From Acinetobacter phage Aristophanes: a DNA stretch of 43,505 nt. The translations under genes and the position numbers were made by a program. The DNA lies in sequence record MT783706.1; one strand, 5' to 3'. Positions 1-43,505 of this stretch are shown here, one piece after another. Within the stretch, counting starts at the first letter, position 1. Every line of letters begins with the position of its first letter. The notes beneath the pieces are model-generated. The model saw nothing but the letters and a program-made list of their open reading frames with translations. It was not told the DNA's origin and searched no databases.

Positions 1-184
1 ATCCTTCAGGGTATTCCTTCAGGAGTTCTTCAGGAGTTCTTCAGGAGTTCTTCAGGAGTTCTTCAGGAGTTCTTCAGGAGTTCTTCAGGAGTTCTTCAGG
101 AGTTCTTCAGGAGTTCTTCAGGAGTTCTTCAGGAGTTCTTCAGGAGTTCTTCAGGAGTTCTTCAGGAGTTCTTCAGGAGTTCTT
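1..184. repeat. Left copy of the direct terminal repeat (DTR) of a linear phage genome
   Basis: Positions 1-184 are identical to 43322-43505: 'atccttcagggtattcc' followed by tandem 'ttcaggagttc' units. The right copy is truncated by the window end, so the true DTR may be longer. Confidence 0.85.
18..182. repeat. 15 perfect tandem copies of an 11-bp unit (ttcaggagttc) inside the DTR; mirrored at 43339-43503
   Basis: Direct reading: 15 x 11 = 165 bp of exact tandem repeats. The unit contains AGGAG and its length matches the DNA helical repeat. Confidence 0.9.
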
Positions 185-535
185 GAGCCTTCGGCTCAGG
201 TTCTCCAGTGTTTCTCCAGTCCTATCTTCTGATATTCATAGTATCATACTCTTTCAGGTTGTCAAGCATCTTTGTATTTATTTTCTTAGTTTTATTCTTA
301 GGTTCTATCTTAGCTGGTTCGCTTGCTTCTTTTGCTTCTTTACTTCTTATCTTACTTTTTACTTCTTCTTACTTCTTCTTTTACTTCTTACTTCCTTGCT
401 TACTTCTTTTCGCCTTCCCTTCCTTCCTTCCTAGCTAGCAAGTTCTATCTATTCTATCTATTCTATCGAATCTTTATTCCCTATAGATTCTCTTCGTTCC
501 TTTCTTTTCTTTTCTTTTTTAATACGCATGATTCT
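185..535 (+). repeat. About 350-bp polypyrimidine (C/T-rich) tract on the + strand with degenerate short repeats (tacttctt, ttctatc, ccttcc); non-coding
   Basis: Strong strand asymmetry read directly. The ORF-track entries 183-434, 208-438 and 323-538 translate to low-complexity L/F/S-rich artefacts. Confidence 0.8.
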
Positions 536-540
536 TAAAT
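519..540 (-). promoter_or_regulatory. Inverted (leftward) copy of the conserved phage-promoter-like motif (aatcatgcgtattaa)
   Basis: The minus strand reads 'atttaagaatcatgcgtattaa', a 20/22 match to the + strand motifs at 7920-7941 and 20804-20825. Confidence 0.4.
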
Positions 541-708
541 TTATTTATATATATCAATGAGTTATAATACCTGAAAATAAGATTAGATAGTACTGTTTAA
601 AGATATATCTATAAATTATTCTATAATTATTTTATAAATATAATCCTTTATAATTCATAGAGTTATATAAGTTTATTAAATTATTTTAATTTATTTATTA
701 AAAAGTAC

Positions 709-737
709 TTGACTTATATTTTTATCGGTATCATAAT
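709..737 (+). promoter_or_regulatory. Host sigma70-type early promoter (TTGACT, 17-bp spacer, CATAAT) with an AT-rich UP-like region upstream
   Basis: -35 ttgact at 709-714 and -10 cataat at 732-737. The motif 'agtacttgac' is shared with the second promoter. Confidence 0.6.
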
Positions 738-864
738 GCACACATACCAAGACGGAACGAAAGGAAAGTTAAGGTACAGTCTAGTGAGACGATCACTAGA
801 TTACTCTATAAAAGTTTATTCAGTTAGTTTTATTTAGTGTATCAATCAAACAAGTGAGTACACT

Positions 865-7877: not shown

Positions 7878-7887
7878 ACGTTTTTAG

Positions 7888-7919
7888 GGTACTTATAAGT
7901 TACTGATTTATAAGTACTC
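7888..7919 (+). terminator. Hairpin (gtacttataa / ttataagtac, 7-nt loop) followed by a T-rich run; putative terminator after the early region
   Basis: 10-bp inverted repeat 7889-7898 / 7908-7917, then 'ctcttttaat'. Confidence 0.45.
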
Positions 7920-7945
7920 TTTTAATAATCATGCGTATTGATGAG
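7920..7945 (+). promoter_or_regulatory. Candidate phage-RNAP promoter (ttttaataatcatgcgtattga) upstream of the DNA-metabolism block
   Basis: A 20-mer identical to 20804-20823, in the same context (just after a terminator hairpin and upstream of a gene block). Confidence 0.5.
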
Positions 7946-8050: not shown

Positions 8051-10378
8051 ATGACATTCTGTATATTAGATTTAGAAACCGAGAATCGAGAGTGGTTCGG
8101 TAATAACTCATCACCACACAATCCTGAGAACTGGATTGTAGCTGCTGGTTGGTGTATTGATAACCAAGATATTCAAAGTGAGTACTTCCCATCAAAGGAG
8201 TTAGCACTTAGTAGTAACTGGTTAGAACGTGCACTACAGGATCAGCAGTACCTAGTAGCCCACAATGCTACTTTTGAGATACAGTGGTTGATGAAGTACT
8301 ATCCTGACACGCTCATGAAGTTCTTTAAACGAGGTGGTAAAGTATTCTGTACCCAGTACGCTGAGTACCTGTTATCACACCAACAAGAGATGTATCCACG
8401 CCTAGAGGATTGTTCTATTAAGTACGGCGGTACTGTGAAGGTTGATGAAGTGAAGCTCCTATGGGAAGCAGGGTACACTACATCACAGATTGATAGAGCA
8501 CTACTCATGAAGTACTTAGCTGATCCTGTAGTAGGGGATGTAGCTAATACTAGACGTGTAGCGTTCTCACAGATACCACTGCTGCAACAACAAGGTATGT
8601 GGAAGATGTGTGAAATCCGTATGGATAGCCTACTGTTCAATGCGGTAGCTACGTACTTCGGATTGTATGTTGATCTTGAGGTAGCTAAGAAGAACCAAGC
8701 TGAACAAGAACAACGTATCGAGGAGATCAAGGATAGTATTAAGAAGATGCTACCTACTGATCTACCTAGTGAGTTAGAGTTCAGCTTCACTTCTCCATAT
8801 CACATGTCAGCATTCTTATTCGGTGGTACAATTCAGTACAAAGCTAAGGTTAGTTATGAGCCTAAGAAGTACGAGCAGATAGAAGCGTATGAGTTCACTA
8901 ATCAGTACAACGATAATGTCGAATATATACCTGTAGCTAAAATGACAGGGATATGGGAGAACATAACTAATTTAGAAGAACATATGGACGCAACCTGCAC
9001 TAGATTTAAGGCTGGTAAGAACAAAGGTCAACCTAAAGTATTCAAGATTGATTCTGATGTTGAGAAACTCAAATGGGGAGATAAGCAATACACCTTCAAG
9101 GGTCTCATTGATCTTAATAAGCTACCTAATCACGTTAAGAGTCTGTACCTAGATAAACGTGCAGAGTTCAGAGGTGCGAGAGAGTTGGTATGCGGTACTC
9201 CAGTGTACAGTACCTCAGGGGATAGTTTAGATGTGCTTGCTGAGCACACAGAGGCTGCTAAACCGTTAAAAGAACTCAAGGCATTAGAGAAGGACACAGG
9301 GACTTATTACTTACGAACTGACGCAAATGGTAAGCAATCAGGTATGCTACAGTTCGTAGAGCCTGACGGTATCATCCACCACCGTTTAAATAACTGTAGT
9401 ACTGTGACAGGTAGATTGAGTGGTAGTAACCCTAACATGCAGAACATACCTAGAGATGGTACGTCTAAAGTTAAGGAGATGTTTAGTTCCCGCTTTGGAG
9501 AGTTAGGTCGTGTTGTGGAGGTGGATTACTCAGCCCTAGAAGTGGTTGCACTCGCAAGCATTTCTGGAGATAAGAACCTGTTAGAGAACTTGCTGGCAGG
9601 TACAGATATGCACTGCTATCGTTTAGCAGGTGCTTTAGGAGAATCCTATGAGAGCGTGGTTGAGAAGTGCAATAATCAGTCTCATCCTGAATACAAGAAG
9701 TACAAGCAATTACGTACCGGGATTAAACCGAAGGCTTTTGCCAATCAGTACGGTGCATCAGCCGAAGGTATTGCCCATGCAACAGGTTGTACCGTTGAAG
9801 AAGCAATCCAGTTTAAAGAAACAGAGCTTAAACTATTTCCTGAGTCATCGGTGTTTGCTGAATTACACATCCGCCCTGAAGCGGAGCGTACAGGATTAGA
9901 GAGTAAGTTAGAGCGTGAGCAAGACCCTGAGACAGGTGTGTGGAAGTACTACCGTAGAGGATACTTCCGTGCCAAAGGCGGTACATGTTACAGCTTCCGA
10001 CAATTTCCTAAGCGAGAGGATGGTAAAGAATACTATGATTATAAAGATACACAAATTGCTAATTACCCAATTCAAGGAGAAGCTTCCTTTATTGTTCAAG
10101 CAGCTTGTGGTCGGATTATTCGGAAGCTCTTTGAACTTGACTTTGTTGGAGGACTTGTCCTACCGATTAACACCGTCCATGATGCAGCGTACTTGGACTG
10201 TGCAACGGAAGAACTTGCTAAAGAGTACGGGGCGTTGGTAAGAACTATCATGGAGGGAACTCCTAAATGGCTTACAGAGCAGATTCCCGCTTATAAAGAT
10301 TGGAATTACCATACCACACCGTTCCCAGCAGCAGCCGAGCTAGGAATTAATATGATGAACAAGGTGCATATAGAATGA
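8051..10378 (+). CDS. Family A DNA polymerase with 3'-5' exonuclease domain
   Basis: Exo motif 'LDLETEN'. Pol motif A 'VDYSALEVVALAS', motif B 'KPKAFANQYGAS' and motif C 'VHDAAYLD'. Length 775 aa. Confidence 0.95.
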   Translation: MTFCILDLETENREWFGNNSSPHNPENWIVAAGWCIDNQDIQSEYFPSKELALSSNWLERALQDQQYLVAHNATFEIQWLMKYYPDTLMKFFKRGGKVFCTQYAEYLLSHQQEMYPRLEDCSIKYGGTVKVDEVKLLWEAGYTTSQIDRALLMKYLADPVVGDVANTRRVAFSQIPLLQQQGMWKMCEIRMDSLLFNAVATYFGLYVDLEVAKKNQAEQEQRIEEIKDSIKKMLPTDLPSELEFSFTSPYHMSAFLFGGTIQYKAKVSYEPKKYEQIEAYEFTNQYNDNVEYIPVAKMTGIWENITNLEEHMDATCTRFKAGKNKGQPKVFKIDSDVEKLKWGDKQYTFKGLIDLNKLPNHVKSLYLDKRAEFRGARELVCGTPVYSTSGDSLDVLAEHTEAAKPLKELKALEKDTGTYYLRTDANGKQSGMLQFVEPDGIIHHRLNNCSTVTGRLSGSNPNMQNIPRDGTSKVKEMFSSRFGELGRVVEVDYSALEVVALASISGDKNLLENLLAGTDMHCYRLAGALGESYESVVEKCNNQSHPEYKKYKQLRTGIKPKAFANQYGASAEGIAHATGCTVEEAIQFKETELKLFPESSVFAELHIRPEAERTGLESKLEREQDPETGVWKYYRRGYFRAKGGTCYSFRQFPKREDGKEYYDYKDTQIANYPIQGEASFIVQAACGRIIRKLFELDFVGGLVLPINTVHDAAYLDCATEELAKEYGALVRTIMEGTPKWLTEQIPAYKDWNYHTTPFPAAAELGINMMNKVHIE

Positions 10379-18334: not shown

Positions 18335-20761
18335 ATGCAAGACTTGTACCAACGCCAGATCGAATTAGAGAACGAGTACTCAAACGCATCGGTTGCAGCA
18401 GGGCAGCAAGCAGTCCTAGATGCTTTTACACAAGGGAGAGCGACTGATATTGGTACAGGTCGTATCCTCCTTGCTAAAGCGTATGAGGCTGCTATTGAGA
18501 GCTTCTCAGAGTTCATTAATAAACCTTCCCGTGGGGTGCTAGGTAAGTACAAGGTACTCCTACGACACGCTACCCCAGAGGTTCTAGTAATGGCAGGTTT
18601 ACGGGAGATCATCAGTGCTTGTGCAGTACCTGAGCCTGTAGTAATGCAAGATGTACTACGCCGTATCGGTAAAGTTATCGAGACTGAGACTATGCTTGTA
18701 TTCCTAGATAAGCTGAATCCTGTATATACTAAACGTACCTTAGAGTACTTAGATTCCGCAGGTACTAAAAGTATCAACCACCGCTACCGTACTTTACTTA
18801 CAGGTACTAATAACTTAGGTTTGAAGTGGGAAGGTTGGTCTATGGAGGAACGTGTTGGTACAGCTAATATCTTACTAACACACCTGTACGATACCACAGG
18901 GCTGTTTAAGTGGGAACTTAACACATCATCACAGCACTACATTGTACAGCCTAGCTCTGTACTTGCAAAGCATTTTGAAGATATTCAAGACGCAGCCCGT
19001 GCAGTAGTTAAGTACCCACCTATGCTGATTAAACCTAGAGATTGGAAAAGTCAGTACGATGGGGGATACTTAACTGATTGGTTTCAAGCACAAGCTCCTA
19101 TGTGTGGTTTACGTTTCCTTAAACGGGAGCAGCGAGACTGGATTCTGAACACGCTTGAGAACGCACAGAGTGCTCCTGTACGGGATGCTATGAATAAAGC
19201 GCAGTCTACCCCTTACCGTATTAACAAACAGGTCTTAAACGTGCTTAGAGAGGCTGTAGGGACACGTCTAGGTATTCTAGGTCTACCAAGCTCACAACCT
19301 AGACCTAAACCTGTGTTCCCATTCCCTGAGGGGTGGTTAAAGGAACACGCTACAGAAGCAGAGATGGAACAGTTCAAAATATGGAAGGAGCAGATGCGGG
19401 TTTGGTATACTAATGAGGCTAAACGCATGGGGCGTAAAGCAGGGATACTATCTCGCTTACGTGAACTCACTCGGTATCAAGACGAGCCAGAATTGTACTT
19501 CCCTACGTTCATTGATTGGCGAGGTCGTATGTACTTCCGTAGTGTACTGAATCCACAGTCTAATGATGCCGTTAAAGGTTGTTTAGAGTTCGCTGAGGGT
19601 AAACCTTTAGGTGCTGAAGGTTTGTTCTGGTTGAAGGTGCACGTAGCTAACTCTTGCGGTTACGATAAACATAGCCCAGAGATTAAAGCTAAATGGACTG
19701 AAGATAACTGGGAGATGATTCGTGATTTTATCAATAACCCCCTTGACGTGGACGCTCCTGAACCTGACACTGCATTTACGTTACTTCAAGCAGGTTTGGC
19801 GTTACAGTCAGCTTATGAAACAGGTGATCCAGAAGGTTACGTATGCCATGTCCCTATCGCTATGGACGCAACTTGTTCAGGCTTACAGCATCTATCAGCT
19901 CTCACAAGAGATACGGTGGGTGCAACGTACACGAACCTGATTGATAATAAATCTGATAAGAAATCAGATATTTACATGAAGGTTGCTGAAGAAGCACAAA
20001 GTAAGTTACAAGAACTTATCTCCGATACAGTAGTACAGAAGTTCTGGTCAGATAGAGAAATCACTAGGGCTATGGCGAAGAAGCCTGTAATGACTCTAGT
20101 GTACGGTAGTACGTTACTTAGCACCATTGAGGGCTTAGCTTTAGAGTTATCAGAGTCAGGTGTAGAACCTATCCGTAATGATGAAGGACGTATTGCTTAC
20201 AGCTTGAATGCTCTAGCAGTTCCAGTAGGTAAAGCACTTCGGCAAGGTGTAGGAAATACAGTACCTAAAGCAGTACAGATTATGTCGTATCTACAGATGC
20301 TTGTACGTAAGCACAAGGATCGTTGTATGCAATGGATTACACCAGTAGGTGTACCTGTAGTGAATTGGGCAGAAGGTGATGTGGTTAAACAAGTGTCTAT
20401 CCGTAGTATGGGTGTTCAAGCTATCTATATGCGTTATCATAACGGAGAGTACAATACCCGTATAGCAGCTAATGGTATAGTACCGAACTTTGTACACAGT
20501 ATGGATTCAGCGCACTTGTGTATGACTATCAATGATGCGGATTGTAGTATCTTACCGATTCATGATTCATTTGCTACACATCCATCTGATGTACCTGAAA
20601 TGCACAGAGCACTTCGTAGTACATTCGCTAAGATGTACACTGACTTCACTATTGAACAGTTACTAGATTTTAACAGTATAGATCAAGAGAAATATCCTGT
20701 TCCCGAACGAGGAGACTTAGACATAAAAACTGTTAATACAGCACCGTATATGTTCTGTTAA
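18335..20761 (+). CDS. Single-subunit T7-like DNA-dependent RNA polymerase
   Basis: 808 aa with motif C 'PIHDSFATHPSD' (T7 'IHDSFGT'). It is the last gene before the structural module, the phiKMV-like placement. Confidence 0.9.
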   Translation: MQDLYQRQIELENEYSNASVAAGQQAVLDAFTQGRATDIGTGRILLAKAYEAAIESFSEFINKPSRGVLGKYKVLLRHATPEVLVMAGLREIISACAVPEPVVMQDVLRRIGKVIETETMLVFLDKLNPVYTKRTLEYLDSAGTKSINHRYRTLLTGTNNLGLKWEGWSMEERVGTANILLTHLYDTTGLFKWELNTSSQHYIVQPSSVLAKHFEDIQDAARAVVKYPPMLIKPRDWKSQYDGGYLTDWFQAQAPMCGLRFLKREQRDWILNTLENAQSAPVRDAMNKAQSTPYRINKQVLNVLREAVGTRLGILGLPSSQPRPKPVFPFPEGWLKEHATEAEMEQFKIWKEQMRVWYTNEAKRMGRKAGILSRLRELTRYQDEPELYFPTFIDWRGRMYFRSVLNPQSNDAVKGCLEFAEGKPLGAEGLFWLKVHVANSCGYDKHSPEIKAKWTEDNWEMIRDFINNPLDVDAPEPDTAFTLLQAGLALQSAYETGDPEGYVCHVPIAMDATCSGLQHLSALTRDTVGATYTNLIDNKSDKKSDIYMKVAEEAQSKLQELISDTVVQKFWSDREITRAMAKKPVMTLVYGSTLLSTIEGLALELSESGVEPIRNDEGRIAYSLNALAVPVGKALRQGVGNTVPKAVQIMSYLQMLVRKHKDRCMQWITPVGVPVVNWAEGDVVKQVSIRSMGVQAIYMRYHNGEYNTRIAANGIVPNFVHSMDSAHLCMTINDADCSILPIHDSFATHPSDVPEMHRALRSTFAKMYTDFTIEQLLDFNSIDQEKYPVPERGDLDIKTVNTAPYMFC

Positions 20762-20767
20762 GACGTT

Positions 20768-20796
20768 TTCTAGGTACTACTAAGTACCTAGAATTT
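20768..20796 (+). terminator. Hairpin (ttctaggtac / gtacctagaa, loop tactaa) followed by a T-rich run, after the RNAP gene
   Basis: 10-bp inverted repeat 20768-20777 / 20784-20793, then 'tttaacaatatttt'. Confidence 0.5.
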
Positions 20797-20803
20797 AACA
20801 ATA

Positions 20804-20830
20804 TTTTAATAATCATGCGTATTAAGACAG
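20804..20830 (+). promoter_or_regulatory. Candidate phage-RNAP promoter (ttttaataatcatgcgtattaa) for the structural/late genes
   Basis: A 20-mer identical to 7920-7939. The flanking context 'gacgttttNtagg...' after the preceding stop codon is also conserved. Confidence 0.5.
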
Positions 20831-21062: not shown

Positions 21063-21317
21063 ATGGGCTTCTTTACGAAACTTATTAAAGGTGTTCTGGG
21101 AGTTGATGACAGTGCCGAGAAGGCTGCTAAGCGACAAGCAGAAGAAGCGGAGAAACGATTACGTGATGCACAAGAAGCACAGAAGCTAAATGCTGCTAAC
21201 GAAATGCAAGGTGTAACTACAATTGATACCGTAGATTTAGGTACAGTAAGTACTGACACCCGTAGACGTAAACGTACAGCAGGTGCAGCTATAAGTAACT
21301 TAGGATTAAACGTATGA
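21063..21317 (+). CDS. Hypothetical protein (84 aa)
   Basis: Coupled ORF (TAAATG). Confidence 0.6.
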   Translation: MGFFTKLIKGVLGVDDSAEKAAKRQAEEAEKRLRDAQEAQKLNAANEMQGVTTIDTVDLGTVSTDTRRRKRTAGAAISNLGLNV

Positions 21318-42902: not shown

Positions 42903-43113
42903 AGCAGTTAAGCTCAAAGAGAAGATCAAGGGAGTAGACCTTGATGTAGTAGAGAACGATCTACGTATCGTTATTGATACAGTAGAGACTTTGAATAAGG
43001 ATAACACCAGTAGTAAAGCAGATAACATTCAACGTGGTGTTAATGATGCTCGGAAGGTACTAGGTATCTTTAGTGCTATTCGGAGTATCTTCAGAGTGTT
43101 TAAGAAGAAGTAG
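42889..43113 (+). CDS. Hypothetical protein (74 aa, GTG start, basic amphipathic C-terminus)
   Basis: ORF overlapping the terminase gene end, in a T7 gp19.5-like position. Confidence 0.35.
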   Translation: MVEDKAVKLKEKIKGVDLDVVENDLRIVIDTVETLNKDNTSSKADNIQRGVNDARKVLGIFSAIRSIFRVFKKK

Positions 43114-43321
43114 ATACGGAGATGTAGTGTGGAACTAGGTTTATTATTTGTGATTGTACTAGGTATTATTCTATCATTTAGTTAGGTGTGTGTGTGGCTT
43201 AGTGTCCAGATGGGAGTACTAAGTCACTTCTAATTTTTGGTAGAAATTTACGAGAGGGTATCCCCACCCTGAGCACCGCAGAGTTCCCCCATAGGGGCTA
43301 CTACAAGCACCCTGCTGAGGT

Positions 43322-43505
43322 ATCCTTCAGGGTATTCCTTCAGGAGTTCTTCAGGAGTTCTTCAGGAGTTCTTCAGGAGTTCTTCAGGAGTTCTTCAGGA
43401 GTTCTTCAGGAGTTCTTCAGGAGTTCTTCAGGAGTTCTTCAGGAGTTCTTCAGGAGTTCTTCAGGAGTTCTTCAGGAGTTCTTCAGGAGTTCTTCAGGAG
43501 TTCTT
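43322..43505. repeat. Right copy of the direct terminal repeat (truncated by the window end)
   Basis: Exact repeat of positions 1-184. Confidence 0.85.

Follow-up and report, generated by a model that had tools for sequence, protein, structure and literature searches.

A probable antisense phage promoter at the left genome end of Acinetobacter phage Aristophanes and its counterparts in related phages

Why should a phage that carries all of its long ORFs on one strand keep a copy of its own promoter motif on the other strand, next to a genome end and pointing away from every gene? This question is posed by Acinetobacter phage Aristophanes, whose record MT783706.1 (43,505 bp; the whole of this stretch is the window analysed here) represents a complete T7-type podophage genome with all long ORFs on the plus strand. 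The phage encodes a portal protein, a capsid protein, a T7-type terminase and a family A DNA polymerase as well as a single-subunit RNA polymerase, which matches T7 RNA polymerase structures (E = 1e-63) and is approximately 63% identical to the polymerases of the Acinetobacter Beijerinckvirinae phages Fri1, Petty and Acibel007. The role of a backward phage promoter at a phiKMV-like left end is a question raised by the 2024 transcriptome of phage LUZ19, in which such an element was termed P001. With a probability of roughly three in four, we consider the site at 519-539 of Aristophanes to be a real leftward, non-coding phage promoter of the P001 kind. Its assignment to the phage polymerase is based on its position and conservation, its concerted replacement in relatives, the accompanying changes in the polymerase, and the T7-like form of the corresponding motifs in phage isolates.

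A search of the whole Aristophanes genome with the 21-mer TTTAATAATCATGCGTATTAA, allowing up to three mismatches, returned exactly three sites of the form TTTAAkAATCATGCGTATTrA, namely one inverted copy and two forward copies termed A and B (Table 1), and none of 100 dinucleotide-preserving shuffles contained a match. When up to five mismatches were allowed, the only extra matches were reverse-strand self-hits of the 21-mer, which is partly palindromic. The minus strand at 519-540 reads ATTTAAGAATCATGCGTATTAA. The original prediction, which was derived from the sequence alone, had reported a 20/22 minus-strand match here and had judged chance to be an unlikely cause; the match was reproduced against 20804-20825, and the shuffles and the count of three sites agree with that judgement. 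An exact 13-nt core, AATCATGCGTATT, is common to all three copies, and the inverted copy and the copy at 20805 have 15 nt of it and its flank in common.

Both forward copies are placed as T7-type promoters are in phiKMV-like genomes, one downstream of the RNA polymerase gene and the other ahead of the DNA polymerase gene. The hairpin preceding copy A has a folding energy of -16.4 kcal/mol (z = -5.5) and the one preceding copy B a z of -4.7; copy B itself is situated 44 nt past the RNA polymerase stop codon and 16 nt ahead of the first late ORF. All three copies are followed by purine-rich sequence and share the appearance of an asymmetric intergenic motif of approximately 20 bp with a TATA-like end. 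The inverted copy is located between the terminal duplication and the first sigma-70-type promoter, on the strand opposite to all genes, and the 21-mer search identified no second phage promoter from which the terminal repeat could be reached, nor any close to the right end. From the alignment with the motifs of Fri1, Petty and Acibel007 we infer that its transcripts would start at A520 or A519. The sequence transcribed initially from there is A-rich (AAAAAAGAAAAG) and less favourable for T7-type initiation than the G/A mix of the forward copies.

Table 1. Location and properties of the elements in Aristophanes and in the phages and contigs compared with it
Genome	Feature	Position	Strand or direction	Details
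Aristophanes	terminal duplication	1-183 = 43323-43505		identical
Aristophanes	template of the predicted leftward RNA	184-518	-	335-nt tract; plus strand 76% pyrimidine, z = 8.6
Aristophanes	conserved hairpin GAGCCTTCGGCTC	186-198	+	inner edge of the terminal duplication; z = -3.8 on the plus strand
Aristophanes	inverted copy of the putative promoter, TTTAAGAATCATGCGTATTAA	519-539	-	predicted start A520 or A519; transcription would run leftward
Aristophanes	AT-rich spacer	540-705		9-19% GC; between the diverging phage and host-type promoters
Aristophanes	first sigma-70-type early promoter, TTGACT-17-CATAAT	709-737	+	
Aristophanes	forward copy A	7921-7941	+	110 nt 5' of the DNA polymerase gene; after hairpin 7886-7920
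Aristophanes	family A DNA polymerase gene	8051-10378		DNA_pol_A match
Aristophanes	single-subunit T7-type RNA polymerase gene	18335-20761	+	Pfam RNA_pol, E = 2e-80
Aristophanes	region aligned to the T7 specificity loop	20369-20476		aa 679-714 of the RNA polymerase
Aristophanes	forward copy B	20805-20825	+	after hairpin 20768-20792
Aristophanes	terminator-like hairpin and U-rich tail	43194-43241	+	-19.2 kcal/mol, z = -3.6
Aristophanes	conserved genome-end element gtagaaatttacgagagggtatccccaccc...gttcccccataggggctac	43239-43301		just left of the 3' duplicated 183 bp
Contig 3300020047_002518	TTATATTGAGGTGGGTATT site	before the DNA polymerase gene, after the same hairpin	forward	
Contig 3300020047_002518	TTATATTGAGGTGGGTATT site	after the RNA polymerase gene	forward	
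Contig 3300020047_002518	TTATATTGAGGTGGGTATT site	between the pyrimidine tract and the AT-rich block	inverted	
Fri1	motif TTTGAAGTTGCACTTATA followed by GAAGG	two after the polymerase gene, one before the DNA polymerase gene; ~686-709	forward; inverted	
Petty	motif AATTTAGAAGGGACACTTATA followed by AGATAG	9785, 12916, 19842; 515-547	forward; inverted	
Acibel007	motif ATTAGAAGATAGACGTATA followed by AGATAG	11545, 22503; 518-543	forward; inverted	
Aristophanes	approximate R746/N748/Q758 equivalents			Q/S/Q; motif AATCATGCGTATT
Same-motif relative	approximate R746/N748/Q758 equivalents			Q/A/Q
Contig 3300002220_001785	approximate R746/N748/Q758 equivalents			L/F/K; different motif
Contig 3300020047_002518	approximate R746/N748/Q758 equivalents			K/N/E; different motif
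Fri1	approximate R746/N748/Q758 equivalents			T/A/N; different motif
Petty	approximate R746/N748/Q758 equivalents			R/N/E; different motif
Contig 3300020047_002518	purine bias downstream of inverted promoter			z = 6.5
Fri1	purine bias downstream of inverted promoter			z = 6.5
Petty	purine bias downstream of inverted promoter			z = 5.8
LKD16	purine bias downstream of inverted promoter			z = 5.7; rank 1 of 4302 windows
Acibel007	purine bias downstream of inverted promoter			weaker, z = 3.7; 58.5% overall, 54% in the first 150 nt

An element of this type has been characterized in the Pseudomonas phage LUZ19, in which the mapping of transcription starts revealed four promoters that are specific to the phage and carry the motif GgtTATGTCACacACAnnGG (Putzeys et al. 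2024, microLife, PMC10914365). One of them, P001, is an opposite-strand promoter that precedes the host promoters at the left end, and it is experimentally active; its antisense transcripts reach over the right-end genes gp47-49, and the antisense site is also present in 15 other Phikmvvirus species (PMC10914365). The authors suggest that P001 blocks transcription into the early genes on the circularised genome (PMC10914365). In phage LKD16, we identified a P001-type motif at 610-629 on the minus strand, flanked by the repeat (1-428) on one side and by the host promoters (from 779) on the other, and forward copies at 21073, 21253 and 35547. Like P001, the Aristophanes site is an opposite-strand copy of the motif used by the forward phage promoters, has the left terminal repeat on one side and host-type early promoters on the other, and is one of only a few phage promoters (3-4), another of which follows the RNA polymerase gene. 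In both types the leftward RNA is non-coding, and the LKD16 tract is likewise the most purine-skewed of its genome.

The two cases differ in several respects. LUZ19 belongs to the Krylovirinae, whereas Aristophanes is a relative of the Beijerinckvirinae, and the motifs are unrelated (AATCATGCGTATT in Aristophanes versus GGTTATGTCACACACA in the LUZ19 type). Aristophanes carries a forward copy before the DNA polymerase gene, while LUZ19 has one in the structural region instead, and an AT-rich spacer with an IHF-like core is a property of Aristophanes and not of the LUZ19 type. Furthermore, transcription was mapped in LUZ19, but the Aristophanes promoter is predicted from sequence. Given P001 in LUZ19 and the finding in LKD16, the Aristophanes element can thus be regarded as a putative P001-type case in another subfamily, which suggests that left-end antisense promoters are not peculiar to Pseudomonas phages. 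No report of such a promoter in Acinetobacter phages was found in the literature: the Acibel007 paper lists five predicted promoters, all of which are forward and have the form CTGTACTCACA, and names no antisense promoter, the phiAbp1 RNA-seq paper (Yang et al. 2019, PMC6469957) contains nothing on antisense RNA, and the papers on AGC01 and phiAbp1 yielded nothing usable on the left end. In view of the motif found here in Acibel007, the published computational predictions for this phage (CTGTACTCACA) may point at the wrong motif.

Is the inverted site maintained in related phages? In two IMG/VR relatives with 91-93% amino acid identity, the inverted copy is present at the orthologous place, as is copy A, and an alignment of the left ends revealed 86% invariant columns in the motif versus 20-37% in the adjacent tract. 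The more distant contig 3300020047_002518 (74-83% amino acid identity; hereafter c20047) carries a different motif, TTATATTGAGGTGGGTATT, at all three orthologous sites, and both forward sites of contig 3300002220_001785, which represents a third lineage, read TTTAATAGCTAACAGTATT, giving one clade with three motif variants. Beyond this clade, Fri1, Petty and Acibel007 each combine forward copies with an inverted one (Table 1), and the motifs of the isolates resemble those of T7, for example GCACTTATA followed by GAAGG. The recognition sequence of the inverted element changes together with that of the forward promoters, and the polymerase changes along with them. The original prediction had named absence or reversal of the motif in relatives as evidence against itself; the element is kept there in the same orientation. 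Its proposal that the motif is a promoter of the phage's own RNA polymerase, pointing left, is supported by the three copies, these relatives and the active P001 alike.

When 21 further loci were searched de novo and without bias for the 20-mers that agree best between an inverted and a forward position, the top pair was this promoter in 19 of them, with 17-19 of 20 bases matching. The search missed c20047, because its low-complexity filter excluded the G/T-rich motif; the c20047 pair was seen directly. A scan of the collection with the 15-mer core was uninformative because its matches were single and due to chance, a 19-mer recovered one true relative, and a metagenome scan for more left ends found none. 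Altogether, the inverted element is kept in every Beijerinckvirinae genus sampled (Friunavirus, Pettyvirus and Daemvirus) and in an unclassified sister clade. The polymerases add a further line of evidence, in that the residues aligned to the base-contacting loop positions of T7 vary together with the promoter motif variant (Table 1), although these equivalences are approximate because the alignment is gapped in the specificity loop. Three closely related polymerases of the Aristophanes clade (76-92% identical) with three distinct promoter cores represent candidate orthogonal expression pairs.

What would be transcribed from the inverted copy? No minus-strand ORF of at least 24 aa was found within 1-520; the sole small one, with 23 aa, begins at an ATG inside the motif and hence upstream of the predicted start site. 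The leftward RNA would be 76% purine because the plus strand of its template is 76% pyrimidine, and it would contain purine-only runs of 24 and 20 nt. The original prediction was therefore right in describing a pyrimidine tract, a purine-rich product and the lack of any protein encoded in this direction. In purine skew the tract ranks first or close to first in the genome, and so do the corresponding tracts of c20047, Fri1, Petty and LKD16, which makes five lineages including Aristophanes; long purine-only runs occur only in the clade of Aristophanes itself. Its composition is conserved and its sequence is not. No 6-mer is shared by the tracts across lineages, each of which has its own short units, and a protein-binding array with a repeat unit common to the lineages was rejected for this reason. 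The purine bias could nevertheless serve another end that is independent of the promoter, such as lineage-specific protein-binding repeats beside the terminal repeat. A leftward intrinsic terminator was not found in 1-520 or in the terminal repeat, so the RNA should cross the junction on concatemers.

The arrangement can be compared with two other phages of the wider family. KP34 possesses three strong promoters, among them S2 at nt 475-490, a phage promoter that was validated in vitro (Lu et al. 2019, PMC6834552). As in Aristophanes, S2 is located between the left repeat (1-216) and a host promoter (931), but it lies on the plus strand and points forward, in contrast to the minus-strand site of Aristophanes. 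The phiOL promoter of T7, which is recognized by the T7 polymerase, also lies in this interval, past the terminal repeat and ahead of the early host promoters (nt 405), and is directed rightward. The leftward orientation is thus not universal in the family. The direction found in Aristophanes is shared by T7 A0 at nt 224, which is leftward into the terminal repeat but is a promoter of the E. coli polymerase; in T7, unlike in Aristophanes, the promoter of the phage polymerase points right and the leftward one belongs to the host. T7 has 17 phage promoters in comparison to three in Aristophanes.

If the site is a promoter, the polymerase, once made in middle and late infection, would initiate at approximately A520, traverse the tract leftward and enter the terminal repeat; where the genome is concatemeric or circular, transcription would continue over the junction, antisense to the last genes. 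We think that the act of transcription matters here rather than the RNA product, and that its effect is exerted on the DNA beside the terminal repeat, since the RNA is non-coding, lacks an evolved fold and has a purine content at or near the maximum for a transcript of this genome. T7-type polymerases leave persistent RNA:DNA hybrids when they make a purine-rich RNA from a pyrimidine-rich template. If the promoter fires late in infection, it might therefore leave a hybrid that opens or marks junction-proximal DNA for replication priming or repeat processing, and it would also, incidentally, oppose rightward read-through. We put forward such a hybrid-based, DNA-level purpose tentatively, as a possibility that falls well short of an even chance. 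A more specific version, which we hold with still greater doubt, is that the inverted promoter and the purine-skewed tract form one functional unit that is maintained in phiKMV-like phages of both Acinetobacter and Pseudomonas despite free turnover of its sequence, and whose persistent hybrid, formed beside the terminal repeat late in infection, primes or licenses replication, or the duplication and cutting of the repeat during packaging. If true, this unit would be the mirror image of the T7 solution consisting of phiOR and a pause site, and it would explain the purpose of LUZ19 P001.

The comparison across subfamilies narrows the functions that a left-end antisense promoter may have. For P001, the published suggestion is a transcriptional insulator, in which late leftward transcription collides with, or is antisense to, late transcripts crossing the junction, so that the early genes stay silent. 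The antisense transcripts of LUZ19 do enter gp47-49, and exactly this role is proposed by the authors (PMC10914365). In Aristophanes, all genes are on the plus strand and read-through of the junction would therefore re-express the early genes, and the absence of a leftward terminator from 1-520 and the repeat is compatible with insulation as well. On the other hand, the end element is already preceded by a strong terminator-like hairpin, of which LKD16 has an annotated equivalent, and insulation leaves the purine skew of the transcribed tract across subfamilies unexplained. The left-end phage promoters of KP34 and T7 are forward, so insulation is no general need, and T7-type polymerases are reported to pass each other head-on. 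We therefore regard insulation as a possible function that we would not expect to be the main one. Less likely in our opinion is a transcription-primed replication origin, comparable to the T7 origins made of a promoter and an AT-rich region or to the secondary origin at phiOL, in which the leftward RNA primes DNA synthesis or, alternatively, diverging transcription melts the spacer. The AT-rich block that the original prediction had noted beside the motif was recovered: the phage promoter adjoins 165 bp of very low GC content (Table 1) with a conserved IHF-like core (TATCAATGAGTTA, 552-564), and phage and host-type promoters diverge from its two sides. Purine-rich RNA would favour stable hybrids, and phiOL is a phage promoter in the same left-end interval. 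In T7 origins, however, the AT-rich region is immediately downstream of the promoter and is transcribed, whereas the block in Aristophanes is upstream of the leftward promoter and outside its transcribed region, and in this geometry the analogy to T7 origins drawn originally fails. Moreover, the corresponding spacer of the GC-rich LKD16 does not seem AT-rich on visual inspection, and leftward extension of a primer would come to the genome end after approximately 500 nt.

The same low likelihood applies, in our view, to a signal for processing or packaging at the concatemer junction, where a polymerase crossing or pausing in the repeat would help the terminase to cut and duplicate it. T7 reportedly uses phiOR together with a pause site at the concatemer junction for this purpose, a system associated with the names of Zhang and Studier and of Fujisawa, in which a few hundred bp separate the promoter from the terminal repeat and the polymerase crosses the junction; the Aristophanes promoter would approach the junction from the opposite side, as a mirror image. 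It is the sole phage promoter within reach of the repeat and, in every lineage examined, is aimed at it, and both GTTCCCCCATAGGGG and a CCTTCGG hairpin are terminal-repeat motifs of T7 that also occur in the end region of Aristophanes. In contrast, the T7 class II pause signal ATCTGTT has six matches in the genome and none in 1-700 or 43100-43505 on either strand, which deprives the end-processing analogy of the original prediction of its defining signal, and the left-end promoter of KP34 points forward. We consider it highly improbable that the motif is not a promoter at all but an operator for a dimeric DNA-binding protein with the palindromic ends TTAATA-n8-TATTAA, in which case its orientation would be meaningless. 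Eight of ten symmetric base pairs match in the Aristophanes 20-mer, and the reverse-strand self-hit at five mismatches reflects the same symmetry; yet the orientation of the asymmetric core and of the purine-rich downstream flank is conserved, and what led to rejection of the operator is that c20047, Fri1, Petty, Acibel007 and LKD16 have non-palindromic replacement motifs which keep the same layout and strand asymmetry. Least probable of all, to a degree that we hardly expect it, is that the leftward RNA acts as a product, either as a GGA-rich protein sponge or as a structured regulatory RNA. The RNA does contain 10 GGA motifs, but 10.8 are expected from its composition, so the many GGA motifs stressed in the original prediction amount to base composition; the leftward tracts of Fri1, Petty, Acibel007 and c20047 contain only 1-3, and the tract is poorly conserved in sequence. 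An evolved fold was not detected (-33.3 kcal/mol over 337 nt, z = -0.29) and Rfam gave no match for the leftward RNA, and both forms of this explanation were rejected.

The reading of the site as a promoter directed into the terminal repeat depends little on where exactly the repeat begins. The terminal duplication of the record consists almost entirely of a 15-copy array of the 11-bp unit CTTCAGGAGTT, of which relatives have only about two copies, and the element at 43239-43301 is homologous to the annotated terminal-repeat starts of Petty and Fri1. Based on these homologies and on the low copy number in relatives, the true terminal repeat probably starts near 43239-43259, and the duplicated 183 bp may reflect overlapping assembly within the 11-bp array. 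With either boundary, the promoter is outside the repeat and points into it. The hairpin at 43194-43241, directly before the end element, would stop rightward late transcripts. On the other side of the inverted copy, the leader that follows the sigma-70-type promoter (741-778) is conserved, with 79% of the columns invariant among four genomes. At the inner edge of the duplication, the conserved hairpin at 186-198 has no U-run on either strand, and two relatives carry the compensatory variant GAGTCTTCGACTC. This hairpin also resembles CAACCTTCGGTTG at 68-80 of the T7 terminal repeat, and in the end element the sequence GTTCCCCCATAGGGGCTAC is nearly identical to T7 bases 23-41.

On its upstream side, the inverted promoter, predicted to drive a phage RNA polymerase towards the left genome end, is flanked by a sequence that matches the IHF consensus exactly. 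This match was kept in both close relatives from IMG/VR, in the relative contig 3300020047_002518 and in Acinetobacter phage Petty, while its counterpart in phage Fri1 has one mismatch and phage Acibel007 carries an exact copy approximately 90 nt away. Given that only three matches were observed in the whole window versus 1.8 expected, the case for a predicted IHF site is based on conservation rather than on count. The forward promoter copies before the DNA polymerase gene (7921-7941) and after the RNA polymerase gene (20805-20825) lack an IHF-consensus match. Conservation was also found downstream of the first host-type promoter, in its transcribed leader, a form of which can be recognised in Fri1, Petty and Acibel007. 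The hexamer region of the promoter itself is variable.

Two elements of the T7 terminal repeat are present at the genome junction of the window, and their order is kept. In two relatives, the CCTTCGG-loop hairpin has changed in a compensatory manner (GAGTCTTCGACTC), and the sequence comparison suggests that these end signals are deeply conserved across the family. The hairpin with a U-rich tail before the right end was overlooked by a simple terminator scan due to its loop length, and Pseudomonas phage LKD16 has an annotated terminator at the equivalent position. Across the junction (43239-43322 and 1-198), homology to the sites where the terminal repeats of Petty and Fri1 are annotated to begin places the probable start of the true repeat near 43239-43259. 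Nearly all of the 183-bp duplication of the window consists of an 11-bp array, the unit of which is present in 15 copies compared with approximately two in relatives; the duplication may be an assembly overlap.

Features of the window and their counterparts
Feature	Position	Strand	Remarks
Exact IHF consensus match, WATCAANNNNTTR (TATCAATGAGTTA)	552-564	+	13-25 bp upstream of inverted promoter
Leader from first host-type promoter, cataccaagacggaacgaaaggaaagttaaggtaca plus hairpin tctagtgagacgatcactaga	741-799	+	79% invariant, four genomes
Terminator-like hairpin plus U-rich tail	43194-43241	+	-19.2 kcal/mol, z = -3.6; directly 5' of conserved end element
T7-like end element GTTCCCCCATAGGGGG	43283-43301; T7, 23-41		Recurs at genome junction
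CCTTCGG-loop hairpin	186-198; T7, 68-80		Recurs at genome junction
Three promoter cores	20805; L135, 3972; L130 (merged relative rel3), 22003		

Just 3' of the polymerase gene, two phage promoters each were found in Fri1 (21279 and 21313, 34 nt apart) and LKD16 (21073 and 21253, 180 nt apart), reminiscent of the paired promoters at the T7 primary origin just after gene 1. In the window, one copy is present at this position. For Acibel007, the published phage-promoter predictions comprise five sites of the motif CTGTACTCACA, all forward and one of them within the polymerase coding region. This motif differs from the T7-like motif GACGTATAAGATAG identified here, which is located at 518-543, 11545 and 22503, the positions expected from relatives. 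Three polymerases that are 76-92% identical are each accompanied by a promoter core of their own, namely AATCATGC, AGCTAACA or TTGAGGTG/AC; together these are naturally occurring candidates for orthogonal polymerase-promoter pairs. In rel3 (L123 and L130 merged), the ORFs at 9504 and 11398 share identical first 20 nt, ATGAAACTTAAAAATGTTAA, and may belong to a duplicated small gene family of the early/middle region; a similar ORF start was observed in another relative (L129, at about 67).
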